Below, one piece after another: positions 4,813 through 32,000 of a DNA stretch of 32,000 nucleotides; positions within the stretch are counted from its first letter, which is position 1, and each line of letters begins with the position of its first letter. The DNA is from Halomicronema hongdechloris C2206. Lineage in GTDB: Bacteria; Cyanobacteriota; Cyanobacteriia; Phormidesmidales; Phormidesmidaceae. Below the pieces are notes generated by a model. The model was not told where the DNA came from. It saw only the letters and a program-made list of their open reading frames with translations, and searched no databases. The stretch lies in contig NZ_CP021983.2 of assembly GCF_002075285.3 (NCBI RefSeq), positions 1,320,001 through 1,352,000 of the forward strand. Direction: 5' to 3'. Both the position numbers and the translations under genes were made by a program.

Positions 4813-4817
4813 TTTAA

Positions 4818-7285: not shown

Positions 7286-7316
7286 CTACTCACTACTCCT
7301 CTCTTCGCTACTCACG
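7286..7316. repeat. Half copy of the family B element, forming the last codons and the stop of MTase-1
   Basis: The sequence is ctactcactactcctctcttcgctactcacg. On the minus strand it encodes ...VSSEERSSE followed by the stop. Confidence 0.55.
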
Positions 7317-11557: not shown

Positions 11558-11619
11558 AACAGAGGAGATGGTGCGAGAGCGGCAGACTGGTGGCAGACGA
11601 TCCAGAGTGGCGAAGGGGA

Positions 11620-11654
11620 GCCCTCACCCTAGCCCTCTCCCGAGGGGAGAGAGG
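11620..11654. repeat. Half copy of the family A element at the 3' end of MTase-2
   Basis: The sequence gccctcaccctagccctctcccgaggggagagagg matches the left half of the 12215 copy almost exactly. It contains the MTase-2 stop codon (11629-11631). Confidence 0.7.
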
Positions 11655-15777: not shown

Positions 15778-15793
15778 TATCAAACTCTAAACG

Positions 15794-18670: not shown

Positions 18671-18715
18671 ATTTTATTAATTTCCCAAAAATAACCTGCA
18701 ATAATCAGCCGCTTT

Positions 18716-21427
18716 TTATTGAAAACTCTGCTTAGGGTAGAGTAATACACTAGTCAAAATCTTGGGGTACTGAAAAGGCAAATCTAGCTTATTCAAGTTA
18801 CTATCAAGACGTTTTTTAGCTTCCTCTAATAAGCTGATGACTTTATCTATTTCGATCTCTGGCCTTGATCGATCAGGTGATCTATCAACCTGACCAACAT
18901 TAGCATTCAAGAGCATTAGCAATTCCCAATCTTTCAAAATATCTATTTCCGATTCCGATCCAATAATTTTTACTCCTACTACAACCTGTCGCACATTTGT
19001 TTGTACACCTGTTACTCGGTCTACAATTTGGAAAATAATTACAGGATCCTTTAATTCAGTCAGTTGTGCCACACAGCCATCCAGTTCTAAAGCTTGCTTC
19101 AACGCCTGATTCATTAGACAATGGCCTACACCGAGTAGATTGTTGATTTTCTTTTTGCCCCGGCAAGCACGATCAAAATGTAGATGCTCATAGCGCTTAC
19201 GGATTGCTGGCTCAGTCAGCCAAGATTCTGGAGTGATAAATGATAGACCATCCTCATTTCGAGAAATCCGCCGCTTATTAAGCTGAAGTATTGTCTCAAA
19301 AAAAGGACGTAAATCTGGCAAGTCCACCTGTGGCAACAAAGAAGAAACTTTTTGAAAGTCGAACTTTTCACAACTTCCCATAAGTTCTTTAACTGTTGCT
19401 ACAGCATCTTGCCCTCCAAATGTTGCGGTTTTAGAGTCGAACCATCGGCTTAAGTTCTCTTTGTTTTGGTCAGCTTCGCTAAAGACTTCCCGAAACATTT
19501 TTGGCGACGTCATCCCAAGCACTAACTGAAGTAAGTCTTCAGACTCTTCCATGACCTGGTCAAGAGACTGCATAATATTCTCAATCTTACTATTAAGCTT
19601 ATCCCAAATTCGTGTTTCTACAGTATCAGGATTTCGCAGGTTAATAACCTCAACTTTCTGCGTTTGGCCATAGCGATTAAGACGCCCTACTCGCTGATGC
19701 AATCGCATAGGATTCCAGGGCAAATCAACGTGAATAAGGGAATAGCATGTCTCTTGAAGATCGATTCCCTCACCACCGGCTTCGGTTGAAATCAGGAATC
19801 TAACTTCCCCAGAGTTAAACTTTTCAGCCGCACGCTCTCTTTTCTCAAAATAGGTACGAATTCTTCCAGAATTTTCAATTACATCATCAGCTCGACCATC
19901 ACCATTGATAAAGGTGACGCAATCATTTCCAAAACGAGCGATGAGAGCAGACATAAGTAAGGATTGAGTAGCTTTGTACTCTGTGAAAAATAGAACCTGC
20001 CGATTGGAGAATCTGGTTTCTAAGATCTCAATTATTTTGCCAATTTTTGTTTCAAATTTTACAAGTTCAGCAGCCTCAATAAGCTCTTGCAATCTTGGCT
20101 TCTCATCTTCCATGAGATATACTTTCAGGCTGAGGTCAAATATTTTCTCCTCCAGCAGACTCAGTTCATCACTATCAGCTTTCTCATCATCATCAAATTC
20201 TTTTAACTTTTCAAGGATATATTTTCTGCTTTTAGCGTTTTCTAGTTCCTCTCGATAATTGTTGATTTTATTTAATCGTTTTTTAAGAGCAGATCGAATG
20301 GCAGCAACTGAGCTGGAAGCTAGTTTCTGCATACAGATTAAGATCAACATTACAGCTCTTTGATTTACCTGACTGAGACCTGATGCATAAGCTTTACCTG
20401 TCAAGATAAATTCTGTGAGTTTAACGTAGAAAGCTTCTTCTTCCAAAGAGTAGCTATAGGTCTCTGAAAAAACATCAGGAGGATAAAATAGCTTTTTCCC
20501 TTTCATATCAGTTACAAGCTGTTTGTTATTCCGAATCATTACCAAATGCAAGCGGCGCATCTGATTTTGAAGATCATCTACTGACTCTACTGCTTCTGCT
20601 GGATCAAAGAGATCAGCACGGAGTAGCTTTAGAAGAGCAAAAAACTGATAATGCTTTCCTCTATGGGGAGTGCCAGTAAAGAAAACAGCAGATTTGACTT
20701 TTTGGTGGTCATACACTAGGCGATTCATTAAGCTATAGCCTAAGGTTTGCCCAGTCTGCTCATCGGCATTTAAGTGATGAGCCTCATCTACAACTACCAA
20801 ATCCCAAGGTTCTGCGTTAAACATGCGCTGATGTCGGTTGCCACTGTCTTTGCGCAGAGTTGGCAACGAGGCAATCACCTGTGAATGGGTATTCCAAAAA
20901 TCACTCTTAGATGTATCCGCTTCGGTGGTGTAGCGTGCCATACGGATATCAAACATGTTGCGCAATCGTTCCTGCCACTGTTCGACGAGACTAGCAGGGC
21001 ATAACACTAGGATGCGCCTAACGGCGTCCTTGCTAAGTAAGGCAGATATAATTAGACCAGCTTCAATGGTTTTACCTAAGCCAACATCATCAGCAATTAG
21101 CCATCGAGTGGGCAGTTCTTGTACAACTTTGCGGCAGACCCAAAGTTGGTGTGGTAGCAGGGCTATGCGGGCAAGGGAAAATACTCCCCACATATCGTTA
21201 ATAGAACGAATTGCAAGAGCCTGGGTACGAGCAACAACCTCTAGAGGATCGTGCCATTCTGGAGCGAGAATAGCTTCCTGAAGAGATTTTAGTCTCGTTA
21301 GTTCTGATTTAGGACATTCTTCAATACCGTGTTCGAACCGAATAACAACCGTGGCATCTTCGTCTACTCGTACTTCACCACTACCAAATCTAGGGTGATT
21401 GACGCGATCGCCTCGTTTATACTCCAT
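18716..21427 (-). CDS. SNF2-family SF2 helicase/translocase, 903 aa, low GC
   Basis: Motifs read LIADDVGLGKTIEAG, VVVDEAHHL, FFTGTPHRGK and HVDLPWNPMRLHQRVGRLNRYGQ. A small N-terminal segment, KRGDRVNHPRFGSGEV, precedes the helicase core. Confidence 0.85.
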   Translation of the reverse strand: MEYKRGDRVNHPRFGSGEVRVDEDATVVIRFEHGIEECPKSELTRLKSLQEAILAPEWHDPLEVVARTQALAIRSINDMWGVFSLARIALLPHQLWVCRKVVQELPTRWLIADDVGLGKTIEAGLIISALLSKDAVRRILVLCPASLVEQWQERLRNMFDIRMARYTTEADTSKSDFWNTHSQVIASLPTLRKDSGNRHQRMFNAEPWDLVVVDEAHHLNADEQTGQTLGYSLMNRLVYDHQKVKSAVFFTGTPHRGKHYQFFALLKLLRADLFDPAEAVESVDDLQNQMRRLHLVMIRNNKQLVTDMKGKKLFYPPDVFSETYSYSLEEEAFYVKLTEFILTGKAYASGLSQVNQRAVMLILICMQKLASSSVAAIRSALKKRLNKINNYREELENAKSRKYILEKLKEFDDDEKADSDELSLLEEKIFDLSLKVYLMEDEKPRLQELIEAAELVKFETKIGKIIEILETRFSNRQVLFFTEYKATQSLLMSALIARFGNDCVTFINGDGRADDVIENSGRIRTYFEKRERAAEKFNSGEVRFLISTEAGGEGIDLQETCYSLIHVDLPWNPMRLHQRVGRLNRYGQTQKVEVINLRNPDTVETRIWDKLNSKIENIMQSLDQVMEESEDLLQLVLGMTSPKMFREVFSEADQNKENLSRWFDSKTATFGGQDAVATVKELMGSCEKFDFQKVSSLLPQVDLPDLRPFFETILQLNKRRISRNEDGLSFITPESWLTEPAIRKRYEHLHFDRACRGKKKINNLLGVGHCLMNQALKQALELDGCVAQLTELKDPVIIFQIVDRVTGVQTNVRQVVVGVKIIGSESEIDILKDWELLMLLNANVGQVDRSPDRSRPEIEIDKVISLLEEAKKRLDSNLNKLDLPFQYPKILTSVLLYPKQSFQ

Positions 21428-21522
21428 ATTCTCTAGTTAGCCCTTAGCACTTAACTCATATACGATCTAGGAATCCTTCTACCATCTGGCAAAGTGACAA
21501 AATCACCGCTATCGCTGTTTCT

Positions 21523-24500
21523 CTAATTTCCGTTTGGCTCATCCTCAAAATAATCTTCATCAGAGAGACCTTCATACCAACCCAAATCTTCTCTCACAAG
21601 CAATCCACGTAAATCTAAGCTATGGCGCTTAGCGTATAGCTCAAAAGGAATATCAAAACAATTTTGAAATGTAGGAAAGTCAGACAAATCAAGATTTTTA
21701 AATTCTTTTTGGAGAAATGTATAAATATGCCGGGAGTGTCTATAGTCTGAAGATTGCAACCCTTGGCATCCTAATCGCATCATGATTCGTCTTATCTTGG
21801 CCCTTGGGACAAAACAGTGAGAAAAAATATACTCAGTTGGCTCAATGATCTCAAAGCGGACTAATTCCCGGATAACAAAGTTAGCGCCAATACCCAGTCG
21901 CAGAGGAGGAGCATCTACTCCACCACCAGAAAGGTCAGATGCGAGTCTTGGATTGGTTAGAGTCACTAGTTCAAAACGATGGGGTATTCGCTCTGCCCTG
22001 AGGAAAGAGTCTTGATACTCATCCAGATATTTAGAGATTTGATAGATATTTGGATATTTCTCCATCCAGTAGTACCAGGTTGTATCTTGACGTAAAGATT
22101 CAAGATAATCATTAAGAACGTAAATCCATTGTTCTGAGGCATCCTGTGGATCTGACTCTGAAAATGTGTTCCACCATCCCTGATTTATGCAGAAACGAAT
22201 AAAGTCTCGATGTTGCTCATGTCTTGTTCTACCCATTGTATGGGTTGCACCGATAAAAAAGAGCATCAGCCATGTACTGCGATTGCCGTCTCGTAACCCT
22301 TGTGTTAGCTCGTTAATCCCAATTGGATAAAGACGTTGATTATAATCTCTTATCTCCCTACCTCCCTGCTCTTTCCACCAACGATAGATATCATCTAACA
22401 GATCTCTTGAATCATTTGGGTTTGGCTCTTCTGGTGGGTCTTCTGAATCTTGAGAAGCTTGGTCGTTGTCTAACGATGAAATTTGTTCCCAGGGAATTTC
22501 GCCCTGTATTGCCCGTTCTTCTTGGAGTTGCCTTGCCTTTGTTTGTAATAGGCTCCTGATCGCAGGATCATCCTTCATCCAAGTATTTTCAATTGAACTT
22601 TGTAATTGTCTTGAAAATTCTAAGCTTCTCTCACCACTAGATAGATAAACTCGCACAGCTTGCCTTTGTTCTTCTGTAGTCGCTGATCTTGCCCATTCAA
22701 CTAGTTCCTCGACCGCAATTGTTTCACGACGTGGGCGGCAAACTCGGAAAAACTCAAGCGCTGTATCAGTGTAATCGGAATGCAGAATTCGATTTGAAGG
22801 GGCGAAGGCAACCAAACGCCTTTCTTCCAGATCACCTGTATGAGTTACAAGAAGCAGTGATGCAGCCAGATAGCCAGCTGCTTGGTTCATAAAGCCTAGA
22901 GGTTCCCCATCTAAGACTTGACGAATTGCTTCATATTCTGAGAGGTGTGAGACCTTCCACTGAGTCATTCTAGAAGGATTGACAAGATTACCAATACTAC
23001 AAGCAATTTCTGGATTGACATTGCGATTCCCTAGGGCTTCTACAAGAATATCTGCAAGCTTTAAAGAACTAGGTTGATGGGAGCTCGTTCCCATAAGTTT
23101 CACTACGTCTTGCCAAACCTGGTGATGAACCCATCGACTCGAGCTGTCTTCAAAATTGGGCCAATTTGAAACAATATTGAAAATCTCTTGATCAGACAAA
23201 ATTCCTGTGATTTTATGAGTTATCTGATCAAATCTAACTAACTGACGAGCATTTCCAAATAATCCATTAGGCAGAGAGGCATGGCAGGAAATTAGGTAGC
23301 CACACCCATAATATTCAGTGGAAAATCCAGCCTTCAAAAGCTGTAATATCGTTTCATCACTATTCAGCCTAAGCCAGTCTTTAACTAAGACATCCCAAAG
23401 AAAATTCCAAAAATGATAAGCACTAATTGTTTCATTCAGATGCAGAGCTTGACGTAATGCTAACCAGTTTCCTTCTGAAGAGAAGAAAAGACCACATAGA
23501 ACCTCGCCTAACTGCATACCAATATCGCGAATTAAGTCTTGATTACGCTTGGAATTTCGATCAAGGCTGGTACGACCTGTTGTGATATCAAAATGGCTAT
23601 TGACAACAAATCGTATATTTAGAGACTCCTTCGTAGGATTAGTTACCCATAATTTTGGTGAGTTAAGCAGTGGCGAATTCTCTGAAAGGTCAGAAGGAAT
23701 TACAAAGGCTACATTCCCTGACCGCAAGTTAAAGTTGAGTAGGTTGTGAGATTGCCAGATTAAATCATTACCATTAAATTTAGGTAGTCTAATTTGGCCA
23801 AACTCAACTTCTGAGATTCCTAGTACTGGTTGTGGTGACCAAGTAAGACGAGTATTTTCTTCACCGCCTGCTTCATTGAGCAACGTACAAGATTTTATCC
23901 TTTTAGAGAAGACAAGCAACAACCCGACTGACCTGTAAAAGCTTTCAGTAGCCGAATCAGCAGGATCTAGAATCTCAGAATCAAAAGGCAAATTAATTAT
24001 TGTTCCATCGTTAATATCCGGCGATGGAGAATGTTCCTGCAAAAATCTCCGCAAGTTACTTGTTAGTCCCTCATCTTCATCCTCTTGCCCAGGCCGAGGT
24101 AGAGATCTAGGAAGTAGACCGGCATAGATTATAAACTTAATATCGCCACTGATTACACAAGGTTGCCTTGAGAGTAGATGAACGGTCTTGAAACCTAGGC
24201 CAAATTTCCCTGTTTCATCTTCCCCTTTGCTAGAGTCGCTAAAGGAAAGCATCTTAACTAAATCACGCTTAAAACCAGATAGTTCTGAATCCTCGTCTTG
24301 TACGTCAGGATGGGTAACCATGTTAATAGGGCGACCCCAGTGCATAATTGTCAAGCCTTGATCATGCAAGGACAGGACAAAATGATTCCGTTCTGGCAAA
24401 GATTGACCCAAAAGCCGCTCATATTCAAGCAAGGCATCATCAGCATTTTGAAAAAGCTCAAATGGAATATTGCTAATATCGTAACCATATTGCCCATGCT

Positions 24501-26973
24501 CAATTTTCCTTCTAACTGTTTGCAGAACAGATAGAGATCCATGATCAGTTTCGATCATCTCGATAAGTTGTGTCTTTCTTTCTTCCAACTGATCGCTAAT
24601 TACTCTTTTCCTTTGATTTACTCTTGCATCACGACGTAGGTTAAGCTCTTCTAATTCTGATTCAAGACTCCCTATTTGATCCAGACATTTTCTGATGTCC
24701 TGATCATTTATATTAAGCATTCTCAAAATTACTGGTAAATGCTGAAGAATATAATTCCGCGCACTCTTCACGTACAACTGTTGAGAATTTAGTAAATCAC
24801 GCCATATTTCTTCGATAGACTCAGTTTCAGTTCTATGAATACGCTGGAGGAGAACTCTAGCTGAGTTAATAAGGGTTTCTGCCAGACTTCCGTTGTCCTC
24901 AGGTAAATTAAACTTCAGCAGGACGATTTCTTGAGTAGAATGATCAAGCTGCCCCACAAATATATGTTCGGGTACTTTGTTCTGCTGAAGGGAGACATCA
25001 ATATCTTCTCTCAATAGATTTCTGACTGTTTGCACAGCACCTTCAACGGACTTCACTGCTATCCTAAAATTTCTGTTTCTAAGATTCTCGGACCAAAGTA
25101 CTCTCTCCCGCAACCCATCAAAACTACGGCTTTGTAGATATTTTTTGGCTAAATTTTGGACATCTTGGTTTGTTCCAGCAAATAAGCATAGTAGTCCGCC
25201 AACAGCCTCTGACGGTAAGTGAGATAGCCAAGGCCGAAAATATTGCTCTAGCGCTTGGGAATTAGCTGTGATGCTTTCTGCACTTCCTGTCCGAATGACT
25301 TTAGACACAGAAGATACAGCTTCTAAATCATTATCCTCATTTTCAATCTCTAAATATGTACCTAGAATAGTTCGCTGGGAACTGTGCAAGACGGAAGCGT
25401 TATCAATCCCTGTATATCTTTCACCGTCACAAAGCTGTTCAGGAGACCGCCACTCACCCTGCTGATTCAGTAATTGAATATGAGGTAGCAGAACTTCTCT
25501 AAAGCTCGCCAATGACTGAGAGGAAATTTTTAAGAAATAGTTGTAAACAGTAACCACCTCAGACGACGGGTTTGGGTATTGTGTTGCTAGCCAATCCAAT
25601 ATTTTTTTTAATCGGTTTAAATCATGGATTGTGTGCCGAACTTTAGGTAAAATAAATTCCTCAAACTCTTGAGACGAAATTTTATGCTTTAGTAGCAGTG
25701 CTGGTGTATGACTACATTCTTGTAGAGTCTGAGCTAACTGCCCAAGCAACGAGTCTGGTAAATCTCCTAGATAGTATTCAGGCAAATCGGCTATTGCATT
25801 TCCTAATTGCTTAATAGCATCCGTTCCAGATAAAAACATAGGTTTTATTTGGTTGCTCTCAAGACAAAATCGAATATCTAAATCATCACGTAACATGCCA
25901 GGCGTGATATACTTAGAGCTAGGCTGTTGTCTGAGGATTTCAGTTGCCTCTAAATCTATTGATTGAAGATCAATAATCTGTTGAGGCGATCGCGGCTGGT
26001 CATCTTGACCGACAAGCCACTCAGTTGTTTTGAGAGGTTCAATGATGGTCTTACGAAGGCTCTGATTTCGCTTCTCAAGAATGCTTAGTATCTTTAATAT
26101 TAGGCAAACATGGTCAAAAGGTTTTTGAGTCTTCTGTAGCAAGAATTCTAAAATATCATTGTCGTACCATTCCTCACATACCTGTCTAAGTGCTGGAGAT
26201 TCTTGAAGTTCCTCTTTGAGCATAGAATAGCTTGCATAGGAACAGTTATGCTCACTCTGGAAAACCTGTTGTAATTTAGACCTAAAATCAGCTAAATAAG
26301 ACGGCAAAAGTATTACATTCTTAGGTGCGATTGATTGTTCTGTCTTCAACTTAAGCCAATTAGCTTCTTTAATATGTTTCAAAAATTCTTCATTTAAATC
26401 TGAATCTGGAACCTGCATTAACTGAAGTAACAGCTCACAATATTGATCCGGTCGAGGCTGTTTCAGTATGACTGAGATAGCTGATTTGGGTGTCCATAGA
26501 GGAATCCAATCTGGACGATTCGTACAGGGAATGATCGTGACTAGTGTTCGTAGCTGAGAAGGCAAGGTGAAGTCAGGATTATTTAAATATGTACTATCTG
26601 CGATAGGGACAGATTTACCATCTGCTGACGTATGTAGTGGAAGGCTCTGCCAAAGTTCTTGCGTACCATAAATTGATACTTGCTTAAGAATTTCCCGTCG
26701 TTCCTCATCGCTAAAATCTTGCTCATGAAGAGCTGTTGCGTTTAAATCCTGAATCAAATTTTGGGGAGCAATAAGCTGTATGCCCAAAATTTTCAGTTGA
26801 TTCTGAGAAACGTCTTTGATCAAATCTGGAGAAAGGATGCGCCAAGGATCTAGAATCTGACGTGCTACTTTACCCCAAACAGCACTCGTCTGAGAGGCAA
26901 CATAGAGTGTATCTATGTTGTCATAATGCTCCGGAGAACCATGCAGTAGAAAACGTAGTGCTTGATTAGTCAT
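21523..26973 (-). CDS. Very large protein (1816 aa) with an internal sacsin/HSP90-like GHKL (Bergerat-fold) ATPase module
   Basis: At about residues 830-960 the protein reads IPFELFQNADDALLEY (N-box) and GKFGLGFKTVHLLS (G-box). I did not recognise the rest. Its ATG overlaps the stop of the upstream gene by 4 nt (26970-26973). Confidence 0.7.
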   Translation of the reverse strand: MTNQALRFLLHGSPEHYDNIDTLYVASQTSAVWGKVARQILDPWRILSPDLIKDVSQNQLKILGIQLIAPQNLIQDLNATALHEQDFSDEERREILKQVSIYGTQELWQSLPLHTSADGKSVPIADSTYLNNPDFTLPSQLRTLVTIIPCTNRPDWIPLWTPKSAISVILKQPRPDQYCELLLQLMQVPDSDLNEEFLKHIKEANWLKLKTEQSIAPKNVILLPSYLADFRSKLQQVFQSEHNCSYASYSMLKEELQESPALRQVCEEWYDNDILEFLLQKTQKPFDHVCLILKILSILEKRNQSLRKTIIEPLKTTEWLVGQDDQPRSPQQIIDLQSIDLEATEILRQQPSSKYITPGMLRDDLDIRFCLESNQIKPMFLSGTDAIKQLGNAIADLPEYYLGDLPDSLLGQLAQTLQECSHTPALLLKHKISSQEFEEFILPKVRHTIHDLNRLKKILDWLATQYPNPSSEVVTVYNYFLKISSQSLASFREVLLPHIQLLNQQGEWRSPEQLCDGERYTGIDNASVLHSSQRTILGTYLEIENEDNDLEAVSSVSKVIRTGSAESITANSQALEQYFRPWLSHLPSEAVGGLLCLFAGTNQDVQNLAKKYLQSRSFDGLRERVLWSENLRNRNFRIAVKSVEGAVQTVRNLLREDIDVSLQQNKVPEHIFVGQLDHSTQEIVLLKFNLPEDNGSLAETLINSARVLLQRIHRTETESIEEIWRDLLNSQQLYVKSARNYILQHLPVILRMLNINDQDIRKCLDQIGSLESELEELNLRRDARVNQRKRVISDQLEERKTQLIEMIETDHGSLSVLQTVRRKIEHGQYGYDISNIPFELFQNADDALLEYERLLGQSLPERNHFVLSLHDQGLTIMHWGRPINMVTHPDVQDEDSELSGFKRDLVKMLSFSDSSKGEDETGKFGLGFKTVHLLSRQPCVISGDIKFIIYAGLLPRSLPRPGQEDEDEGLTSNLRRFLQEHSPSPDINDGTIINLPFDSEILDPADSATESFYRSVGLLLVFSKRIKSCTLLNEAGGEENTRLTWSPQPVLGISEVEFGQIRLPKFNGNDLIWQSHNLLNFNLRSGNVAFVIPSDLSENSPLLNSPKLWVTNPTKESLNIRFVVNSHFDITTGRTSLDRNSKRNQDLIRDIGMQLGEVLCGLFFSSEGNWLALRQALHLNETISAYHFWNFLWDVLVKDWLRLNSDETILQLLKAGFSTEYYGCGYLISCHASLPNGLFGNARQLVRFDQITHKITGILSDQEIFNIVSNWPNFEDSSSRWVHHQVWQDVVKLMGTSSHQPSSLKLADILVEALGNRNVNPEIACSIGNLVNPSRMTQWKVSHLSEYEAIRQVLDGEPLGFMNQAAGYLAASLLLVTHTGDLEERRLVAFAPSNRILHSDYTDTALEFFRVCRPRRETIAVEELVEWARSATTEEQRQAVRVYLSSGERSLEFSRQLQSSIENTWMKDDPAIRSLLQTKARQLQEERAIQGEIPWEQISSLDNDQASQDSEDPPEEPNPNDSRDLLDDIYRWWKEQGGREIRDYNQRLYPIGINELTQGLRDGNRSTWLMLFFIGATHTMGRTRHEQHRDFIRFCINQGWWNTFSESDPQDASEQWIYVLNDYLESLRQDTTWYYWMEKYPNIYQISKYLDEYQDSFLRAERIPHRFELVTLTNPRLASDLSGGGVDAPPLRLGIGANFVIRELVRFEIIEPTEYIFSHCFVPRAKIRRIMMRLGCQGLQSSDYRHSRHIYTFLQKEFKNLDLSDFPTFQNCFDIPFELYAKRHSLDLRGLLVREDLGWYEGLSDEDYFEDEPNGN

Positions 26974-28763
26974 GGCAGTAGTCTCCTTAATAGGTTGATG
27001 CGATTTTCAGGAGCCGCCAGGTGGGGACGTGTTTCGAGAATTGAGATGCAAGCTGTGCGATCGCACTCATTCAGAGATTCACACAATTTCTCCGCGATTT
27101 CTCGATCAACTAAAATAATCTCGGTGTTCTCTAAAGCCTCCTGTAATGGTTTTGCAAAGTTATTTTCGTTTTTTGATTTTTTGAAAATAGAACCACTCTG
27201 GGAATTAATTTCTCTAAGACTGTAGAGGGTTTCCTCACCTGTCCGACAGTTTTCTCCAAATATGAAGGACAATGTTTCAGTTTGGCTCCGAAATTCTGAT
27301 AAGTCATGGCCTGGAATGGCACGAATAATCTGATGAACAATTTCAATAATGAGAGATCGCTCTTCAGTGTTATCGAGCAATACAGAAATGACCGCCCCGG
27401 CATTTTGCCCTGATAGTGTTTGAGCTTCATCACTAGGACAGATCTGAGTGGGAATTAACAAAATGTCTAGGTCTTGATTATCGAGGTCTCGATTGAGATT
27501 TTGCAACAGTTCTTGATCAGGACAGTTGATGCAAAACCAATGTGATGGACTTAGCCTAGAAATGACGGATTGTATGAGCGTTCGCTGCTGCTCTAGTTGA
27601 TGAAACTCCAAATTAACGAGAGCGCTTCTTACTTGCTTCTGCAAACTCTCTTGGATGTCGTTGGATACTAACCACTCACTAGAAGTAGGGATAACAATGT
27701 TTAACCAACTCACAAAAAACTGCAGCTCAGCATCATTTTGAACAATGTGGATGATATCCAACGAGTCCAGAACTGTAATAATGTCATCATCTGCCCAGTT
27801 ATCCGGCTTCTCTAAAGGAATCAGATTAGGATCATTCTCAATAATGAGACAGGCAGAATTAGCAATCTGAGTTAATGCTGACCAGACATTCCAAGTTGGG
27901 CAGCGAGGCACAGCCAGTATGCGCTGCTGCGAACCGTCTACTAATTGCCACCGGGTATCGGCTGGTTGTACCCGATACACCCAATATCCTGGCTGATATA
28001 AATACTGATGTAAAACTTGTGTCTGAAAGAGCTTCGACTGTTTCAAAGCTTCACAAAGAACTCCAATATCAGATTGCTCTAGTTCAGAACTTTCACAAAA
28101 TTCGTTTAATGCTGGAAGAATCTGCGGTAATGTCCCTTTCGTTGCCAGAATTGTATTCCAAGCCCTGATCATTTCAGTATCGTTGCTTGGCGTTTGCGAG
28201 CTTCCATTGCCAGCATAGAGTTCATCTAGTCCTTCAATCGATTGCCGTCCAGAATCCAGAAAAAAGTATCCATGCAGCATCAGCGTATAATCCTGCGTTC
28301 CCTCAATGGAGATGCATTCATGCACAGCATGATTTCCACCTCCGTCAGCCAAGGGCAGAAAGACAGCCCATTGAATGATTAAACGGCTCTCTGCATTAGC
28401 AGGTTGGTGAGAGAAAACAACTCCACAATGGGGAATTGCCTTATCTGCTACAGTGATTGACCTACCAGTTAAATCGTTATAACTCGAACGTTTTGGCCAA
28501 TGGTCTGACTCCTTAAGAACAGTCCAAAAATCACCATTCAAGTCAGGCTGATCAGCAAGTAATCCTTGAAACTGTTGTTCTGGTAAAGACGCTTCGACTC
28601 CTCCGTACCTAGCCTGATGATTGGAGAGTTGGATAGAGCCTCGGAACGGGTGTTTTATATTATGCTCTGAAAGATTCCCCTTAGTTCTTGGATAGATAAA
28701 TCGCTGATCTGGAGTCTCTAATTGAATTGACAGTTTTTGGAATCTATCTTGATGCGAAAATAC
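26970..28763 (-). pseudogene. C-terminal fragment of an IS-disrupted sacsin-like GHKL ATPase gene
   Basis: The minus-strand frame is open from 28763 to the stop at 26970. It continues in phase from the N-terminal fragment once the IS and one target-duplication copy are removed. Confidence 0.8.
28756..28763. repeat. Target-site duplication gaaaatac (left copy)
   Basis: An identical 8-mer directly abuts both IS ends. Confidence 0.85.
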
Positions 28764-28796
28764 GGCTCTGCAGGAATGAGTATGCTGGTGTAGTAG

Positions 28797-29252
28797 ATGC
28801 TATACCGTATCGCTATGGTACCTCTCTTGAGTGAACTCTTGGGGTTGTCTGGCATTGATGTGGAGTCATACCAGGAGAGCGAGGATGGCTTGATTCTGGA
28901 GGTAGAAGCGCACAGGGACACAGCAATCTGTCCTCGCTGCGGGACTTTGAGCCACCACCTCCATCAGAATCATGGCTACCTGGTGCGTGACCTACCCATC
29001 AGCCATTACCGGAAGACCTGGTTACGGGTGAATCGCCGCCAGTTTAAGTGTTCGACCTGCGGTAAACCCTTCAGCGAGGAGCTGGAGTTTGTCGGCGCGC
29101 GTCGGGTGTACACGGACCGGTATGCCGAGGTGGTGGTGAGTGAGGTGATTCATAGTAATACGGCTAATGTGGCGCGACAGCACGGGTTGAGCGAAGATAT
29201 CGTCTGGTCCATGGTGGAGTATGTCAGCGAAAAAAAGTCTGTATTGACTTGA
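28797..29252 (+). CDS. ISL3 transposase, N-terminal ORF with zinc-finger/HTH region
   Basis: The protein reads ICPRCGTLSHHLHQNHGYLVRDLPISHYRKTWLRVNRRQFKCSTCGKPF, the zf-ISL3-like CxxC...CxxC pattern. Confidence 0.8.
   Translation: MLYRIAMVPLLSELLGLSGIDVESYQESEDGLILEVEAHRDTAICPRCGTLSHHLHQNHGYLVRDLPISHYRKTWLRVNRRQFKCSTCGKPFSEELEFVGARRVYTDRYAEVVVSEVIHSNTANVARQHGLSEDIVWSMVEYVSEKKSVLT
29231..29237 (+). promoter_or_regulatory. A_AAA_AAG slippery heptamer, in phase with ORF1; candidate -1 frameshift site joining the two transposase ORFs
   Basis: The ORF1 codons are GAA(29229) AAA(29232) AAG(29235). The -1 frame reads on as V C I D L S G L R R L G I D E I without a stop into ORF2. Confidence 0.4.
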
Positions 29253-30031
29253 GTGGATTGCGGCGGTTGGGCATCGACGAAATCGCGCTACGTAAAGGTC
29301 ACAAGGACTTTGCTGTGGTCTTGAGTGACCTCGATACTCACAGGCTGATTGGGATGGCTCCAGCGCGGACTCATGCGGCGATTGAAGCCGTGCTCAACAC
29401 CTGGGGTGCCGAAGTGCTCTCAAACATTGAAGAAGTCAGCATGGATCTCTCCGGCAATTACCGGGGCTTAGTGCATCGCCTGATGCCTCAAGCCGAGATT
29501 GTGGCCGACCGTTTCCATGTCATGAGTCTGGTCAATCAGGAATTGAATCAAGCCCGTAACGCCCTCCGGCGGACACCCGAGGCTTTAGCCGAGGGCGTCA
29601 CTCCTGAGGCGGCTAAAGCAGCGCTCAAATCCAGTAAGTATGCCCTCCTCAAGCCAGAAGCCCATCTCACCAAGACCCAGCAGGACAAGCTCGTTGAGGT
29701 CAAAGCTGTTTCGCCGAAACTCGCCTTGATGCATCAGACCAAAGAAGCCTTTAGGACTCTATTTGAGGCTCAGTCTTGGGCTCAAGCCCTGCCGGGTTTC
29801 CTGGGCTGGATGGGAACCGCGCAATCCCTCTACCCCGAGGCTGTGGCAACGATGAAGCGATGGTTTGGCGAAATCCTCCAGTACTTTGAACACCGCACCA
29901 CAAGCGGTGTCGTCGAAGGCATCAATACTCGCCTAAAGTTGATCAAGCGCTCTGGTTACGGGTTCACCAACTTTGAGCGATTTCGGCTCCGCTGCCTCAT
30001 CTGCTGGCATTTTTCTCCTGCTGCTGCATAA
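29249..30031 (+). CDS. ISL3 transposase, catalytic DDE part (the frame is open upstream to at least 29225)
   Basis: The protein reads LGIDEIALRKGHKDFAVVLSDLD...ADRFHVM...SGVVEGINTRLKLIKRSGYGF, typical of the DDE_Tnp_ISL3 core. The stop lies inside the right inverted repeat. Confidence 0.8.
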   Translation: MSGLRRLGIDEIALRKGHKDFAVVLSDLDTHRLIGMAPARTHAAIEAVLNTWGAEVLSNIEEVSMDLSGNYRGLVHRLMPQAEIVADRFHVMSLVNQELNQARNALRRTPEALAEGVTPEAAKAALKSSKYALLKPEAHLTKTQQDKLVEVKAVSPKLALMHQTKEAFRTLFEAQSWAQALPGFLGWMGTAQSLYPEAVATMKRWFGEILQYFEHRTTSGVVEGINTRLKLIKRSGYGFTNFERFRLRCLICWHFSPAAA

Positions 30032-30047
30032 TTATCCCAGGAGAGCC

Positions 30048-30055
30048 GAAAATAC
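30048..30055. repeat. Target-site duplication gaaaatac (right copy)
   Basis: An identical 8-mer directly abuts both IS ends. Confidence 0.85.
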
Positions 30056-30748
30056 CCAGTAGTAAATGGATTGTAGTGAGTTTAAACAAGGAATTAGGGT
30101 GCTAATTCGTCTATCTAAATCCCTGGGCAGATGTTGCTGAATTGTGTGATAATCATAGGTTTTAGACAGGAGTGCCCGAGGTTGATTTGAGATCCTCAAT
30201 GGTAGCCAGAGAACGAAATAATTTGAATAGTTTTGAGTTATTAAAATATCCTCTAAATAGTTCTCGACAGCGCTCTTATCTCGCGGGGTCATTGGTTGCC
30301 CATCTGCCCAGGGGGTTAAGAATCGATAGCTTTGAGCTTTTTCTGATAATTGGTCTGATTCGGCAATATAAAAGAATGATTCACAAAAATGGAAAACGCT
30401 CTTTTGTCCCAAGCCAAATTTACCAATCTTGGCTGAATTTCCAGCATTAAAATCGATTCCGATCCAACCAATCGCTTTTGCATCAGAATCTCGGAATCCA
30501 CCATTATTGACAAAGAATAAAGATGGTTGTTCTAGGAGAGGATGTTCGACTTCTGTTGAGGGTAATCCTGGAGTTACCCCCATATCTAAGCGAGTTGCAC
30601 CCGCATCATTCGCATTTTGAAGAATCTCTTTGATAATGGGAAATCCTTCTTTATATCGTTCCTTGAGTAGCGTTTGGATTTGATTAGCGATCGCTCCTGG
30701 CGGAACTTCTAATCCTGTTTTGTCAAACTCCTGCATATCGGTAACCAT
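30048..30748 (-). pseudogene. N-terminal fragment of the IS-disrupted sacsin-like GHKL ATPase gene
   Basis: The protein reads IIKEILQNANDAGATRLDMGV (N-box) and AKIGKFGLGQKSVFHF (G-box). The track ORF (30032-30748) reads on into the IS inverted repeat and stops there. Confidence 0.8.
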
Positions 30749-30765
30749 CAGTAGGCTTATAGAGC

Positions 30766-32000
30766 TTAGTTGAGAAATTTGCTAGGTTTTCCAACCCAGC
30801 AAATGAACAGTTCATCCCTTGCCCGCGTAAGGCTTACGTACAGAAGCTGCCTCTCCCTAGCCAGTACATCCTTCTGTAGCTGAGTATCCTTAGTCCTATT
30901 AACGAGATATTTCAGCGGCACCTGGTCATCCGATACATTCACTACAAACACCGCCTTAAACTCCAACCCCTTAGCCCGGTGCATCGTCCCCGCATTCACT
31001 GCCGACTCCCGTGCTCCCCCCTTCCGCAGGTTATGGCACTTGAGCCCAGCTTCCTTCAATGCACTCTCAAGCTGAGTAATCGCCTTGTTAGTACGAGCAA
31101 AAATAGCCACCTCTTCCGGGGCTAACCCCTCCTGGGTAATTGCTTGGATTTGCTTCACCAAGAACTCCTGTTGTTGCTCCTGGGTATTAAATCCCTTCAT
31201 GACGGGCTTGGGTCCACTCAAAAGACTGACCGTTCCCTTACGGCTCTCCTGTCCGCCATCCATGTCATCGCTCTGGTGACCCAGCATGGTATCGGCGAAC
31301 TGTCGAATTTGTTCCGTAGTGCGGTAGTTGATCCGGAGAATATGAGACCGTCCCCGCACATCCACCCCAAGCGCTTTGAGGCTAAACGGGGTGCTGTAAA
31401 TCCGCTGTCCTCCATCGCCTACCAGAGTGAGAGAATCATCCCCGTCTCCCGCCAATGCTGCCAGCAGCATAATCTCCTGGGGGCGCAGGTCCTGAAGTTC
31501 ATCTACGATGACGGCATCGAATGGACTTTCAACCTTCCCCGTGGTGACTAACTCCCTAGCTAAACGGCAAATGGAGGGGTAATCCATGCAACCCTTCTCA
31601 TTCAAGGTTTCATACACCCGCTGAAAAATCTGCCAGACCTGCTTTCGTCCCTTAACCGTTAGCGGAAACCCTCGACCTGTGCGGTTAGCACTGCGGTAGT
31701 CGTCCCAGGTGGTAACACCCTGGTCCTGAATGACCGTTTCCCATTCAGTCTTCAGCAGGTCGGGTTCTAGGGGACAGATACCAGGATGGTAATACTCATC
31801 GATAAGTTTCCAAATCTCGTCGTTATTGATGGGATAGAGATCTGAATTCGCTGTTTTGGCTAAAGCTAGCCCCTGGCTGTGAACCGTCGTTACCGTAATG
31901 CGCGATCGCTCCTCTGAGGTACATAGCAGCTCTAGGTTGTGCTCGATGTTTTCACACAGGGTCGATACATAGCTGGTCAAAAAGACCCGCTTACCCTGCC
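30766..32000 (-). CDS. UvrD/Rep-like SF1 helicase, C-terminal ~410 aa (5' end beyond the window)
   Basis: Motifs read AVIVDELQDL (motif II), LVGDGGQRIY (III), LRINYRTTEQI (IV), GTMHRAKGLEFKAVFV (V) and LLYVSLTRARDEL (VI). The frame stays open from 31980 to position 32000. Confidence 0.8.
   Translation of the reverse strand, partial: QGKRVFLTSYVSTLCENIEHNLELLCTSEERSRITVTTVHSQGLALAKTANSDLYPINNDEIWKLIDEYYHPGICPLEPDLLKTEWETVIQDQGVTTWDDYRSANRTGRGFPLTVKGRKQVWQIFQRVYETLNEKGCMDYPSICRLARELVTTGKVESPFDAVIVDELQDLRPQEIMLLAALAGDGDDSLTLVGDGGQRIYSTPFSLKALGVDVRGRSHILRINYRTTEQIRQFADTMLGHQSDDMDGGQESRKGTVSLLSGPKPVMKGFNTQEQQQEFLVKQIQAITQEGLAPEEVAIFARTNKAITQLESALKEAGLKCHNLRKGGARESAVNAGTMHRAKGLEFKAVFVVNVSDDQVPLKYLVNRTKDTQLQKDVLARERQLLYVSLTRARDELFICWVGKPSKFLN

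Follow-up and report, generated by a model that had tools for sequence, protein, structure and literature searches.

What kind of system is formed by two overlapping genes for sacsin-type GHKL ATPases that lie next to a SNF2 helicase gene in Halomicronema hongdechloris C2206? We analyzed the whole stretch of DNA that holds these genes, 32,000 nucleotides in length (the window), together with 83 distinct related genome loci, for which 10 kb on each side was taken and ORFs were called mechanically. The two ATPase genes and the SNF2 helicase gene together make up a single conserved cassette that is horizontally mobile and occurs in many bacterial phyla, and we found no description of it in the literature. 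The cassette has three genes in the window and two in most other phyla, where the first two are fused. The features discussed below are as follows.

7286-15783: PglX/Eco57I-like methylases
15794-18670: BrxHII/ArmA-like SNF2 gene adjacent to the cassette
18716..21427, minus strand: RapA/DrmD-like SNF2 helicase, 903 aa (Pfam SNF2-rel_dom, ResIII, Helicase_C)
21454..21522, minus strand: 23 in-frame codons past the TAG stop of the large gene (RNSDSGDFVTLPDGRRIPRSYMS; likeness to homologue tails)
21523-26973, minus strand: large gene, 1816 aa (ORF)
21526..22533, minus strand: lgC, orphan C-terminal domain of the large gene, aa 1481-1816 (AlphaFold2, conservation)
22534..23493, minus strand: Mid region of the large gene, aa 1161-1480 (BLAST, TmtA alignment)
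23494..24483, minus strand: second sacsin-type GHKL module, about aa 831-1160 (SACS family matches, motifs, hhalign)
24175-24210, minus strand: large-protein G-box GKFGLGFKTVHL, aa 922-933 (motif)
24430-24459, minus strand: large-protein N-box ELFQNADDAL, aa 839-848 (motif)
24484..26973, minus strand: lgN, N-terminal region of the large gene, aa 1-830 (AlphaFold2 model, no known fold)
26970..28763, minus strand: small gene, 3' part, aa 232-828 (reconstruction to 828 aa)
28764..30047, plus strand: ISL3-family insertion sequence, 1,284 bp, inside the small gene (Pfam domains, repeats, target duplication)
30056..30748, minus strand: small GHKL gene, 5' part, aa 1-231 (Pfam SACS, NCBIfam NF047352, family profile, reconstruction)
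30389-30424, minus strand: small-protein G-box GKFGLGQKSVFH, aa 109-120 (motif)
30599-30628, minus strand: small-protein N-box EILQNANDAG, aa 41-50 (motif)
30766..31980, minus strand: UvrD/GajB-like SF1 helicase ORF (Pfam UvrD_C, UvrD-helicase; PADLOC GajB)

Coupling and composition of the cassette genes

The start of the large gene lies within the end of the small gene, with the 4-nt overlap (26970-26973, ATGA) reported in the first-pass annotation. Among the 83 related loci, the large partner follows the small gene wherever the contig continues, and in bacteria other than cyanobacteria a single fused protein of ~2,500 aa usually replaces the two. Colinear fusions were found in P0012-P0021 and in 31 lgC-type loci. 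The 4-nt overlap, the colinear fusions, and the constant adjacency indicate that the small and large proteins act together.

The three-gene block has a GC content of 0.41-0.43 versus 0.52-0.56 in the flanks (small gene, 0.405 and 0.426 for its two parts; large gene, 0.405; SNF2 gene, 0.415; compared with 0.547 for the insertion sequence, 0.554 for the next SNF2 gene, and 0.562 for the methylase). The local G+C counts from which a shared low-GC block had been proposed (26/60 and 22/60) were exact, and the block extends over all three genes.

The small gene is interrupted by an insertion sequence

The small gene is present in the window as two ORF pieces (30032-30748 and 26970-28541, minus strand). 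The sequence inserted into it has the ISL3 transposase domains Zn_ribbon_ISL3, HTH_Tnp_ISL3, and DDE_Tnp_ISL3 (5.5e-63) by Pfam, imperfect terminal inverted repeats that begin GGCTCT, and an 8-bp target-site duplication, GAAAATAC, at 28756-28763 and 30048-30055. At an A7 run (29230-29236), the transposase itself is broken into two ORFs, of 151 and 260 aa. Deleting 28764-30055, which removes the element and one copy of GAAAATAC, restored a single ORF of 828 aa, the length reconstructed in the first-pass annotation. The reconstructed protein is 85% identical to intact P0022 (819 aa), and the closest relative, L167, has an empty, uninterrupted site. Since the small gene is interrupted, the C2206 copy of the cassette is probably inactive.

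Two anciently diverged GHKL modules

Profile searches identified a sacsin/Hsp90-type GHKL fold in both proteins, as the Bergerat-type N-box and G-box had led the first-pass annotation to propose, and at the same positions, the N terminus of the small protein and near aa 830 of the large one. In the small protein, Pfam SACS matched aa 21-131 (E=1e-16, 62 bits; cutoff, 32.8), and the NCBIfam sacsin ATP-binding domain NF047352 matched with 71 bits (cutoff, 50). The small-protein family profile matched the solved sacsin SR1 domain (5v44) over the whole domain with an E value of 4e-17. Pfam SACS matched aa 831-949 of the large protein alone with 24-26 bits, below the cutoff, and 28/28 large-protein family members tested matched SACS (best, 1e-11). 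Against PDB, the large-protein family profile matched sacsin at 1e-4 and Grp94 at 0.007, as well as HtpG.

The ATP-binding motif sets are conserved in both families, with the N-box and G-box of the large protein 98-100% conserved in 63 sequences. The two modules are an anciently diverged pair, and hhalign aligned the large-protein module with the small family over 104 columns at a probability of 94.7%. At motif II, the NNG of the small protein is replaced by HWGRP in the large protein, and this difference makes the ATPase competence of the large protein uncertain.

The 3' part of the small gene encodes a conserved WAVFLP / LHGYFF.D.GR segment, followed by a helical C-terminal region, and Pfam, PADLOC, and NCBIfam searches with this part (aa 232-828) gave no match. 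In the AlphaFold2 model (pLDDT, 86; pTM, 0.59), lgN is built from repeats of a helix-plus-beta-hairpin module that bears the motif W-L-x4-G-x4-P-x2-V/I, and it also has a small beta subdomain at aa 637-687 and long helices at aa 694-825. A Foldseek search of lgN against PDB returned nothing at E≤0.001, only HEAT/ARM-like noise, and its profile matched no PDB sequence. This region is the least conserved part of the system, with 21-25% identity to the fused forms.

A variable C-terminal slot in the large protein

The Mid region is common to all three variants of the large protein, with 33-38% identity by BLAST to those ending in DarT and NOV_C, and the C-terminal half of TmtA, the Tiamat protein, shows distant similarity to it; Mid plus NOV_C of L011 aligns to positions 1096-1518 of the TmtA model PDLC03964. 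The slot that follows Mid holds the orphan domain lgC (the window and 39 of the 83 distinct loci), a DarT ADP-ribosyltransferase (20 loci), or a NOV_C/DUF3883 nuclease domain (9 loci). A Macro gene follows every DarT variant.

We found lgC in 963 representative proteins, and it is C terminal in the best 150 of these 963. It is all alpha (AlphaFold2 pLDDT, 81), with the invariant residues R85, W88, G101, W136, L213, G216, R222, E223, R226, F289, D294, and P296 in domain numbering and, where a loop meets a helix, a GR-x5-H motif that is mostly conserved (R102 in 35/39 sequences and H108 in 33/39). A structure search against PDB and a viral fold library returned nothing at E≤0.001, the closest neighbor, a weak one, being DNA-glycosylase-like Qng1/DUF2419 (TM, 0.39). 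Searches against Pfam and PDB sequences gave no convincing match (best, 0.004 and 0.018, from scattered single matches), and profile and fold searches found no recognizable nuclease or other toxic enzyme in the lgC variant. The first-pass annotation had suggested searching the unassigned regions for folds that included DUF3883: lgN and lgC came out without a known fold, and NOV_C/DUF3883 turned up in the corresponding slot of a sister variant.

lgC and its SNF2 helicase are exclusive partners

The 903-aa SNF2 protein has a UvrD/PcrA-type Tudor-like domain at ~aa 5-45 and a helicase core at aa 88-631. Its C-terminal region (aa 632-903) is conserved and specific to the family, and searches detected no relatives of it. 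The profile of the Tudor-like domain matches the UvrD CTD (7egt) at 3.8e-4. The PADLOC DrmD model PDLC02634 matches the SNF2 protein over its full length (1351 bits), and NCBIfam DISARM_DrmD matches it with 296 bits, below its cutoff of 610. The PADLOC model probably took in the cassette SNF2 family because its genes can lie beside DISARM, as they do on plasmid C of Trichormus variabilis.

An orthologue of this SNF2 gene lies directly downstream in 38/39 lgC loci versus 0/29 other loci (Fisher, 2e-18), and in the reverse direction lgC lies upstream of SNF2 in 25/25 metagenome loci versus 2/51 (Fisher, 4e-18); these counts treat related loci as independent, and the P values are overstated. The two exceptions carry codiverged lgC and SNF2. 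These results show that lgC and its dedicated SNF2 protein are mutually exclusive partners, and the reciprocal co-occurrence strongly supports the earlier view of the SNF2 gene as part of one acquired cassette with the ATPase genes. Fused forms, swappable C-terminal effectors (DarT plus Macro, and NOV_C), and the exclusive lgC-SNF2 partnership, all beyond the view of the first-pass annotation, make the case for the cassette.

Distribution and genomic context

A collection of one genome per species (185,579 species) yielded 179 relatives, spread patchily over Cyanobacteria, Proteobacteria, Chloroflexi, Desulfobacterota, Planctomycetes, Poribacteria, and Bacillota. One intact copy, genes AVA_RS29100-29090, is on a conjugative plasmid beside DISARM (plasmid C of T. 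variabilis ATCC 29413, with drmABC and a cytosine methylase adjacent). Neighbors across the loci include type I R-M, BrxH/DrmD-like, DrmA, WYL, ParDE, PIN, transposase, DISARM/ARMADA, and toxin-antitoxin genes, an accessory rather than a chaperone-type setting, and some neighbors are ordinary metabolic genes. The GHKL fold, the adjacency of the two genes, and this accessory setting, the three points on which the first-pass annotation could have been refuted, all bear out its interpretation. Eroded or IS-disrupted copies are present in the window and in L045. The cassette lies within or beside SNF2-plus-methylase (ARMADA/DISARM-like) arrays in ~10% of loci, the window included, and is therefore only probably independent of such systems.

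Comparison with known systems

Tiamat (TmtA) was reportedly described by Millman et al. in 2022 as a single-gene anti-phage system, and it is represented in PADLOC by models PDLC03964-03972. Its C-terminal effector is a PD-(D/E)xK / DUF3883 nuclease (bioRxiv 10.1101/2024.10.26.620412). The cassette shares with it an N-terminal sacsin-type GHKL ATPase and a C-terminal DNA-directed effector; the TmtA models are the only PADLOC families that the small and large proteins match, and Mid plus NOV_C of the sister variant aligns to the C-terminal third of TmtA. However, these matches are weak and cover the models only locally (22-48 bits; model length, 1,063-1,655 positions), and the cassette, whether split over two genes or fused into one 2,500-aa protein, has two distinct GHKL modules and a repeat region of 800 aa. 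Unlike Tiamat, the window variant has lgC in place of the nuclease and needs a dedicated SNF2 gene.

In the GHKL-Shedu protein VcSduA, a GHKL ATPase gates a nuclease in phage defense, and ATPase and nuclease mutants both lose defense (PMC12137116). VcSduA and paraMORC3 resemble the cassette in the fusion of a GHKL ATPase to a C-terminal nuclease and in the logic of a GHKL clamp that gates an effector (PMC12137116; PMC2292703), but their GHKL clade is HATPase_c/MORC-like rather than sacsin, their single module works as a homodimer, their nuclease is of the DUF4263 family, and they lack a helicase partner.

The first-pass annotation had likened the genes to MORC-type modules linked to R-M systems. 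In R-M-like systems, a linkage of GHKL proteins to SFII helicases has been described (Iyer, Abhiman, and Aravind 2008, PMC2292703), and prokaryotic MORC/paraMORC genes likewise place a GHKL ATPase beside an SFII helicase, SWI2/SNF2 types included, and are laterally mobile and clustered with methylases and nucleases (PMC2292703). The GHKL/SFII pairing in the analogy therefore stands, as does the difference in clade, the family profile matching MORC2 at only 0.003 versus 4e-17 for sacsin; PMC2292703 does not count sacsin-type proteins as MORC or paraMORC1-5. The link to methylases and R-M is facultative in the cassette (~10% of loci), and each system has two GHKL modules.

DrmD, ArmA, and BrxHII (of DISARM class 1, ARMADA, and BREX) have the same helicase core as the 903-aa SNF2 protein (PMC9142583; 10.1101/2025.09.15.676423) and share its RapA-like build with an N-terminal Tudor-like domain. 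They differ from it in that the cassette protein falls below the DISARM_DrmD cutoff and its partner in every informative locus is the lgC-bearing GHKL protein, not a methylase; no DrmA, DrmB, DrmC, or YprA helicase is found in the window. Eukaryotic sacsin (the ARSACS protein) has repeated sacsin-type Hsp90-like modules and a distinct effector-like C-terminal domain, HEPN (PMC3710099), and among solved structures its SR1 domain is the best homologue for the small protein. Unlike the cassette, it has three repeats with DnaJ and UBL domains, is described as a chaperone, and is without a helicase partner; no homology between lgC and HEPN was detected. The DarT variant resembles DarTG in having a DarT domain followed by a Macro-domain gene, but its DarT is the C-terminal domain of a 1,840- to 1,970-aa GHKL protein, not a free toxin, and neither DarT nor Macro occurs in the window.

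Proposed function and alternative explanations

We consider it rather likely that the cassette is a Tiamat-like, GHKL-gated conflict system directed at nucleic acids, acting against phages or plasmids, in which the effector ends can be swapped and the RapA-like motor is a dedicated one. The defense role is one that we infer from context and domain logic, as we do the "sensor/effector" label given earlier to the GHKL pair. The core would be formed by the GHKL module at the N terminus of the small protein and the one embedded at ~aa 830-1160 of the large protein, behind the 800-residue fast-evolving repeat region. By analogy with all studied GHKL ATPases (Hsp90, MutL, MORC, and topoisomerase II), ATP binding would close the two modules on each other, between chains, as a heterodimer, or within one chain, and an invader-derived cue sensed by the variable repeat regions might trigger or stabilize this closure. 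The conformational change would then license the occupant of the C-terminal slot: in sister systems, the DarT DNA ADP-ribosyltransferase, which the coencoded Macro hydrolase would hold in check, or the restriction-endonuclease-fold NOV_C/DUF3883 nuclease; in the window, lgC, which would work only with its dedicated, highly conserved RapA-like SNF2 translocase. As an adaptor or activator, lgC may dock the SNF2 motor onto target DNA, or onto complexes of transcription or replication, and activate it there, but this effector step is guesswork because neither lgC nor the SNF2 C-terminal region has detectable relatives. Mean column identity is 59% for SNF2 versus 30% for lgN, 38% for GHKL-Mid, and 23-41% for lgC, which fits a fast-evolving sensor and a conserved motor.

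It seems unlikely to us that lgC acts as a toxic enzyme in its own right (for example, a DNA-base-directed enzyme or a divergent HEPN-like RNase that relies on the R-x5-H motif), with SNF2 as its regulator or antidote in abortive infection and not a motor on invader DNA. In favor of this view, lgC occupies the exact slot of the toxins DarT and NOV_C, the obligatory downstream gene of the DarT variant is an antidote (Macro), and polar residues (R85, R222, E223, R226, and D294) are invariant beside the mostly conserved GR-x5-H; the HEPN domain that ends eukaryotic sacsin (PMC3710099) and the weak likeness to a DNA-glycosylase-like protein also point this way. However, profile and fold searches support neither HEPN nor glycosylase nor other enzyme families, R102 and H108 are not invariant, and a conserved 900-aa SNF2 motor with a Tudor domain of the RNAP/UvrB-binding type is unlikely to be a mere antidote. 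A housekeeping role as chaperones (Hsp90/sacsin-like quality control) or as MutL-like repair factors with a helicase, outside genetic conflict, appears very improbable. Sacsin and Hsp90 are chaperones, MutL works with UvrD (PMC3710099; PMC2292703), and metabolic genes adjoin some copies, but the relatives are few and scattered across phyla, with atypical GC, copies on plasmids, a C-terminal slot that swaps between DarT plus Macro and a nuclease domain, eroded or disrupted copies, and no conserved housekeeping synteny.

The window itself raises another reading, that the GHKL pair and SNF2 are not autonomous but are accessory subunits of a larger methylation-based system of the ARMADA/DISARM class, working with the BrxHII/ArmA-like SNF2, the PglX/Eco57I-like methylases, and the UvrD/GajB-like helicase (ARMADA components as defined in 10.1101/2025.09.15.676423 and PMC13463889). 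All seven window genes run in one direction and are 10-95 nt apart, and a scan of 18000-32000 found no terminator-like site at any gene end. In L008 and L077 the pair is flanked by SNF2 plus methylase on one side and by a helicase, UvrD or YprA-like, on the other; in L005, L012, L032, and L070 it adjoins SNF2, methylase, or DrmAB-like genes; and T. variabilis plasmid C places it beside drmABC and the cytosine methylase. We nevertheless hold this reading to be quite unlikely. Such a methylase is present in only 8/83 genome loci (fetched flanks), only 2 of them of the lgC type, and the GC content of the trio, ~0.13 below that of the adjacent SNF2 and methylase genes, indicates a separate origin. 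The window lacks the defining YprA-like helicase, and the ARMADA paper nowhere mentions a GHKL or sacsin component. The neighboring systems also vary by locus (DISARM class 2, ARMADA-like, or type I R-M), as expected for defense-island clustering rather than one machine.

Sequences bordering the cassette

The UvrD/GajB-like ORF lies 17 nt upstream of the small gene and is without the N-terminal part of the helicase, its Pfam match starting at profile position 63. A copy with 60% identity adjoins the trio in L001, and one is adjacent in L167, but such a helicase occurs in only a few other loci and may be a facultative neighbor outside the core. At the other end of the ATPase pair, the large gene stops at a TAG, and the codons beyond it (RNSDSGDFVTLPDGRRIPRSYMS) resemble the genuine C-terminal tail that the homologues P0141 and P0142 carry. 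They are either left over from a longer ORF or an extension made by read-through, and the TAG with its tail is also present in L167.

A low-GC gene trio with two sacsin-type GHKL modules

The minus strand of the window carries a co-directional row of genes. It includes a small (828-aa) sacsin-type GHKL ATPase gene, a large (1816-aa) partner gene, and an SNF2 helicase gene (SNF2_903), together referred to here as the trio.

Genes of the row and its neighbors (window positions, strand, description)
30766-31980, minus: UvrD/GajB-like ORF
26970-30748, minus: small sacsin-type gene, interrupted by an insertion sequence
21523-26973, minus: large gene, 1816 aa
18716-21427, minus: SNF2 helicase, 903 aa (SNF2_903)
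15794-18670, minus: second SNF2 helicase, 958 aa, BrxHII/ArmA/DpdE-like (PADLOC DpdE PDLC02853, 894 bits)
11629-15783 and 7286-11557, minus: two Eco57I/PglX/DrmMI-like methylase-type proteins, 1,384 aa and 1,423 aa
6605-7078, minus: PIN-domain ORF (2.5e-14), between the methylase and the pAgo pair
3301-6128, minus: short pAgo (503 aa) and upstream nuclease-APAZ partner (436 aa) (PADLOC pAgo_I, 1.6e-150; Aga_REase-PNTD)
1258-2055, plus: Ser/Thr protein kinase domain ORF, near the window start (5e-32)

The first-pass annotation had proposed the GHKL pair and the SNF2 gene as a low-GC acquired cassette, and its observations held up. The N-box and G-box motifs that it quoted were all found in place in both proteins, the small and large genes do overlap by 4 nt (ATGA), and its GC counts are exact, with the trio forming a low-GC block (0.405 to 0.426) between flanks of 0.52 to 0.56. 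The large protein is 100% identical to XM38_012960. A scan for promoters and terminators gave counts at or below chance and no site marking the cassette boundaries.

A 1,284-bp ISL3 element (28764-30047) interrupts the small gene. It has inverted repeats that start GGCTCT, an 8-bp target duplication (GAAAATAC), and a transposase matching DDE_Tnp_ISL3 (5.5e-63) plus zinc-ribbon and HTH domains in Pfam. Removing the element and one copy of the duplication in silico gave a single 828-aa ORF. The closest relative, locus L167 (84 to 86% identity), shares this gene order and has an unbroken small gene and an intact, empty target site. Because of this insertion the window copy is probably inactive. 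The event is probably recent, since the large gene and the SNF2 gene have both remained intact. The transposase (28797-30031, plus) is itself broken in frame, with 151-aa and 260-aa ORFs meeting at an A7 run (29230-29236). ISL3 transposases are usually encoded by a single ORF, and the split may reflect a frameshift mutation or programmed frameshifting.

The small protein scored above cutoff against both Pfam PF25794 (SACS; 62 bits, cutoff 32.8) and NCBIfam NF047352 (71.3, cutoff 50). The profile of its family matched the solved Hsp90-like domain of sacsin SR1 (5v44_A) with an E value of 4e-17 over chain residues 17 to 250 of 253, and E41, Q44, N45, A46, D48, G83, and G109-K110-F111-G112-L113-G114 were invariant in 37 sequences. 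These matches assign the small protein as a sacsin-type GHKL (Bergerat-fold) module, with an N-box (E..N..D) and a Gly-rich G-box of predicted Mg-ATP binding.

The large protein of the window scored only 24 to 26 bits against Pfam SACS (cutoff 32.8) and 38.5 against the NCBIfam model (cutoff 50). All 28 of the relatives tested matched SACS (best, 1e-11), and the family profile matched sacsin at 1e-4 and Grp94/HtpG at 0.007 to 0.08. The N-box FELFQNADDA and the G-box TGKFGLGFK were 98 to 100% conserved (n = 63 sequences), and motif II is atypical, reading HWGRP where the small protein has NNG. Judged from these profiles and motifs, the GHKL assignment is valid for the small protein and, through its family, probably for the large one as well. 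The large and small GHKL families aligned by hhalign with a probability of 94.7% over 104 columns, and the two modules are ancient, only distantly related paralogues, not the products of a recent duplication.

The large protein begins with lgN (aa 1 to 830), a repeat region of low conservation, which is followed by the GHKL module, a common middle region (Mid), and a variable C terminus, which in the window is a domain that we call lgC (aa 1481 to 1816). The structure models were built on shallow alignments (15 and 35 rows), and fold searches used the whole chain. In the lgN model (pLDDT 86), helix-plus-hairpin modules (four or more) are combined with long helices and one small beta subdomain. 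Its Foldseek matches were all generic helical-repeat proteins (TM of about 0.1), and a PDB sequence search gave no match. The large gene stops at a TAG that is followed by 23 in-frame codons (RNSDSGDFVTLPDGRRIPRSYMS; TAG and tail at window 21454-21525, minus). These codons resemble the true C-terminal tail of two related proteins, P0141 and P0142 (..ITL.DGRVIP..Y), and both TAG and tail are kept in L167 (8769-8842). The arrangement may reflect either a nonsense mutation common to the two or read-through of the stop codon.

SNF2_903 matched SNF2-rel_dom (1.1e-18), ResIII, and Helicase_C (3.3e-15) in Pfam, and its DDVGLGKT and DEAHH motifs were invariant in 37 orthologues. It is thus a SNF2/RapA-like helicase with an SNF2-related N-lobe and a Helicase_C C-lobe, and its motifs are intact. 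Mean column identity was 59% for the SNF2 family versus 23 to 38% for the GHKL proteins. The first ~40 residues of SNF2_903 matched the C-terminal Tudor domain of UvrD/PcrA (7egt, E = 3.8e-4; also 7egs, 9dqs, 6yi2, and 9dci), which is a docking module for RNA polymerase and UvrB. The C-terminal region (aa 625 to 903, ~280 residues) had no Pfam or PDB match and is family specific.

The trio is a conserved, mobile, accessory cassette

A collection with a single genome per species (185,579 species) yielded 179 relatives of the small protein. The distribution is patchy, across Cyanobacteria, Gamma- and Betaproteobacteria, Desulfobacterota, Chloroflexi, Planctomycetes, Poribacteria, and Bacillota. 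The family is present on five plasmids and in 0 of 50,697 phage records. An intact trio (AVA_RS29100, 29095, and 29090) lies on conjugative plasmid C of Trichormus (Anabaena) variabilis ATCC 29413, where it adjoins a cytosine methylase and DISARM drmA/DUF1998/drmC. RefSeq labels these three genes only "hypothetical protein" and "DEAD/DEAH box helicase," and the GHKL proteins examined are "hypothetical" or carry at best the sacsin ATP-binding domain alone. Other neighbors of the family include type I restriction-modification systems, BrxH/DrmD-like and DrmA-like helicases, WYL, ParDE, PIN, NERD, DruA, BrxE, transposases, and some ordinary metabolic genes. About 10% of the loci, the window among them, lie in or beside SNF2-plus-methylase arrays of the ARMADA/DISARM kind.

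We compared three sets of loci: exact-protein look-up gave 6 contexts, the small-protein profile 80 species-representative genome loci, and the SNF2 profile 80 metagenome loci. Each was analyzed by mechanical ORF calling, BLAST, and an lgC HMM, with flanks of 10 kb. A homologue of the large gene directly followed the small gene wherever the contig continued, and outside the cyanobacteria the two were usually one colinear polypeptide of ~2,500 aa. In Amphritea opalescens (L042), Marinobacterium lutimaris (L044), and Caballeronia megalochromosomata (L068), for instance, the cassette is a compact pair of genes, the first being the fusion. Such a "Rosetta stone" fusion is strong evidence that the small and large proteins act as one unit. 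These results show that the three genes are a conserved, mobile, accessory cassette with a core of two coupled or fused sacsin-type GHKL modules.

The C-terminal slot and the exclusive partnership of lgC with SNF2_903

The C terminus of the large protein differed among loci, and what lay downstream differed with it.

C-terminal variants of the large protein among 83 distinct loci
lgC, 39 loci: orthologous SNF2 downstream in 38
DarT, 20 loci: overlapping Macro-domain gene downstream in all
NOV_C/DUF3883, 9 loci: no SNF2 orthologue downstream
Not assigned, 15 loci: mostly truncated by contig ends

An SNF2 orthologue (45 to 74% identical) lay immediately downstream in 38 of 39 lgC loci versus 0 of 29 DarT or NOV_C loci, and the one exception (L045) is an eroded locus. 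In the reverse direction, 25 metagenome loci had an orthologous SNF2 with 300 nt or more of sequence before it, and in all 25 lgC lay just upstream, versus 2 of 51 loci with other SNF2 families. Fisher's test gave a P value of ~1e-18 in both directions, which is inflated by the phylogenetic non-independence of the loci. These results show that lgC and the SNF2_903 family are exclusive partners. They also show that the C-terminal slot takes interchangeable modules, among them DarT, a known DNA-modifying toxin, and NOV_C, a predicted restriction-endonuclease-fold nuclease domain, and that a third module, lgC, works with a dedicated SNF2 motor.

In the two metagenome loci where lgC accompanied another SNF2 family (L129 and L145), the lgC of the fused double-GHKL protein is divergent (HMM E values of 2e-8 and 3e-10), and the SNF2 that follows is only 29% identical to that of the window. 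They represent a deeper branch, in which lgC and SNF2 appear to have diverged together. Other fused proteins depart from the three named ends: some (P0012, 2,801 aa; L004 10001-18406) have ~300 extra residues after lgC, and others (L034 2404-9201, 2,265 aa) have no lgC, DarT, or NOV_C, so further effector variants may exist. In one NOV_C-type locus (L013), a truncated Macro-domain ORF lies downstream (17686-18189) and may be left over from an exchange of the DarT-plus-Macro and NOV_C variants.

An exhaustive profile search with lgC returned 963 representative proteins, 708 of them at an E value of ≤1e-30, and at least 708 protein clusters at 50% identity carry the domain. Among the 150 best matches listed of these 963, it lay at the C-terminal end of ~1,800- or ~2,500-aa proteins or of fragments. 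This search was far more informative than a homologue search with lgC alone, which gave only 7 fragments. The lgC model is all-alpha and confident (pLDDT 81). Residues R85, R222, E223, R226, and D294 and several Trp and Gly residues are invariant, which suggests a putative binding or catalytic site.

The searches did not support lgC as a known enzyme. Pfam searches with the window sequence and with 39 family members (E ≤ 10) gave scattered noise only. Matches to Pfam and PDB sequences were scattered (E ≥ 0.004), and neither a meaningful PDB sequence profile match nor an NOV_C match to the window domain was found. Foldseek against the PDB and viral predicted structures gave nothing at an E value of ≤0.001. 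A likeness to Qng1/DUF2419 reached a TM-score of 0.39 at best, too weak to use. Two motif-level readings were also speculative: an R-x5-H motif recalls HEPN and its R102 and H108 are not invariant, and LGIGxxFVxRELxR recalls a helix-hairpin-helix and the model has no first helix of such a fold.

Relation to known defense systems

Several described systems share parts with the trio. Tiamat (TmtA) has a related domain logic, but it is a single gene with a C-terminal PD-(D/E)xK (DUF3883/NOV_C) nuclease, whereas the window has three genes and lgC at the C terminus; the Tiamat-type end was seen only in the 9 NOV_C sister loci. The window proteins gave only local matches of 22 to 48 bits (the GHKL motifs and one flanking stretch) to TmtA models of 1,063 to 1,655 positions, and so did the fused and sister forms. 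The name Tiamat is absent from the text of the Millman preprint. MORC and paraMORC systems, in which GHKL proteins are linked to SFII helicases (PMC2292703), resemble the trio in their helicase neighborhood, and here the SNF2 is dedicated, as both partnership tests found (38 of 39 and 25 of 25 loci). The small-protein profile matched MORC2 only at 0.003 over ~75 residues versus 4e-17 for sacsin, and by this measure it would not be a MORC-type GHKL+S5 module, which is marked by a family-specific S5 motif.

DISARM and ARMADA are suggested by the neighborhood. The core of class 1 DISARM is drmA (helicase), drmB (DUF1998), and drmC (PLD) with drmD and drmMI, and the window has no DrmA-, DrmB-, or DrmC-like ORF. 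SNF2_903 matched the PADLOC DrmD model PDLC02634 over its full length (1351 bits) and fell below the NCBIfam DrmD equivalog cutoff; in every informative locus the partner of this family is the lgC-bearing GHKL protein, not DISARM. PDLC02634 probably arose from loci like T. variabilis plasmid C, with DISARM next door. SNF2_903-type genes may be miscalled as DISARM components, and the model is likely a misannotation of the SNF2_903 family as DrmD. ARMADA is defined by a YprA-family DExH helicase with DUF1998, a BrxHII-like SNF2, and a PglX-like methylase (10.1101/2025.09.15.676423), and the paper describing it includes no GHKL component. Of these, the window contains an SNF2 (15794-18670) and PglX/Eco57I-like methylases; it also has a UvrD-like ORF, and a YprA-like helicase is absent. 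These ARMADA-like parts are neighbors of the trio, not the trio itself.

By the defining features tested for each, the trio falls outside Tiamat, DISARM, ARMADA, and MORC. We found no description of it in PADLOC-DB 2.0, NCBIfam, RefSeq annotation, or the searchable literature, and that literature held no account of a sacsin-type GHKL protein with SNF2 or DarT.

Proposed mode of action

GHKL-gated nuclease defense has been demonstrated for VcSduA (PMC12137116), and by analogy the cassette would work like this class of systems; what sets it apart is the presence of two GHKL modules and of a huge repeat region, together with an orphan domain in the effector slot and an obligatory SNF2 partner. 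We infer that the cassette is an anti-phage or anti-plasmid system. The fast-evolving repeat regions would control ATP-driven closure of the two GHKL modules, this closure would gate the effector, and in the window variant the SNF2 translocase would be recruited or activated by lgC.

Taken as a whole, the fuller proposal is tentative and rather doubtful. It holds that the cassette is a widespread, undescribed, methylase-independent immunity in which an invader cue would close two anciently diverged GHKL modules and the orphan lgC would switch on a dedicated RapA-like SNF2 motor as the effector itself. Phage transcription or replication would then be stopped by translocation, not by cutting or poisoning; the same chassis would also take DarT plus Macro or a DUF3883 nuclease, and the architecture of human sacsin, with several repeats and a terminal effector, would have its prokaryotic prototype here.

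The cassette would add a large unannotated family to the catalogue of bacterial conflict systems, and effector swapping on one double-GHKL chassis is a natural experiment that helps to assign sensor and effector roles. The mechanism of sacsin, which is mutated in ARSACS, is poorly understood, and a bacterial relative would also offer a tractable counterpart of its repeated Hsp90-like modules. The idea is directly testable, since the model cyanobacterium T. variabilis ATCC 29413 has an intact copy on a conjugative plasmid.

Other features of the island

The short pAgo and its nuclease-APAZ partner are a second, separate defense system of the same island, and this pair is also low in GC (0.40 to 0.45). 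The SNF2 and methylase array at 7286-18670 (minus) resembles ARMADA or DISARM class 1, with no YprA/DrmA helicase in the window. Within the gene for the 1,423-aa methylase, a 1.2-kb block (7586-8786) has a GC content of 0.36 to 0.43 and the rest of the gene 0.55 to 0.61, which suggests a recombined or swapped domain, for example, a target-recognition part. At the other end of the row, the match of the UvrD/GajB-like ORF begins at position 63 of the UvrD helicase domain profile, so the N-terminal, ATP-binding portion is either absent or encoded in a different frame past the window end. A full-length copy of this ORF, 60% identical, adjoins the trio in one related locus (L001), and a fragment is present in L167.
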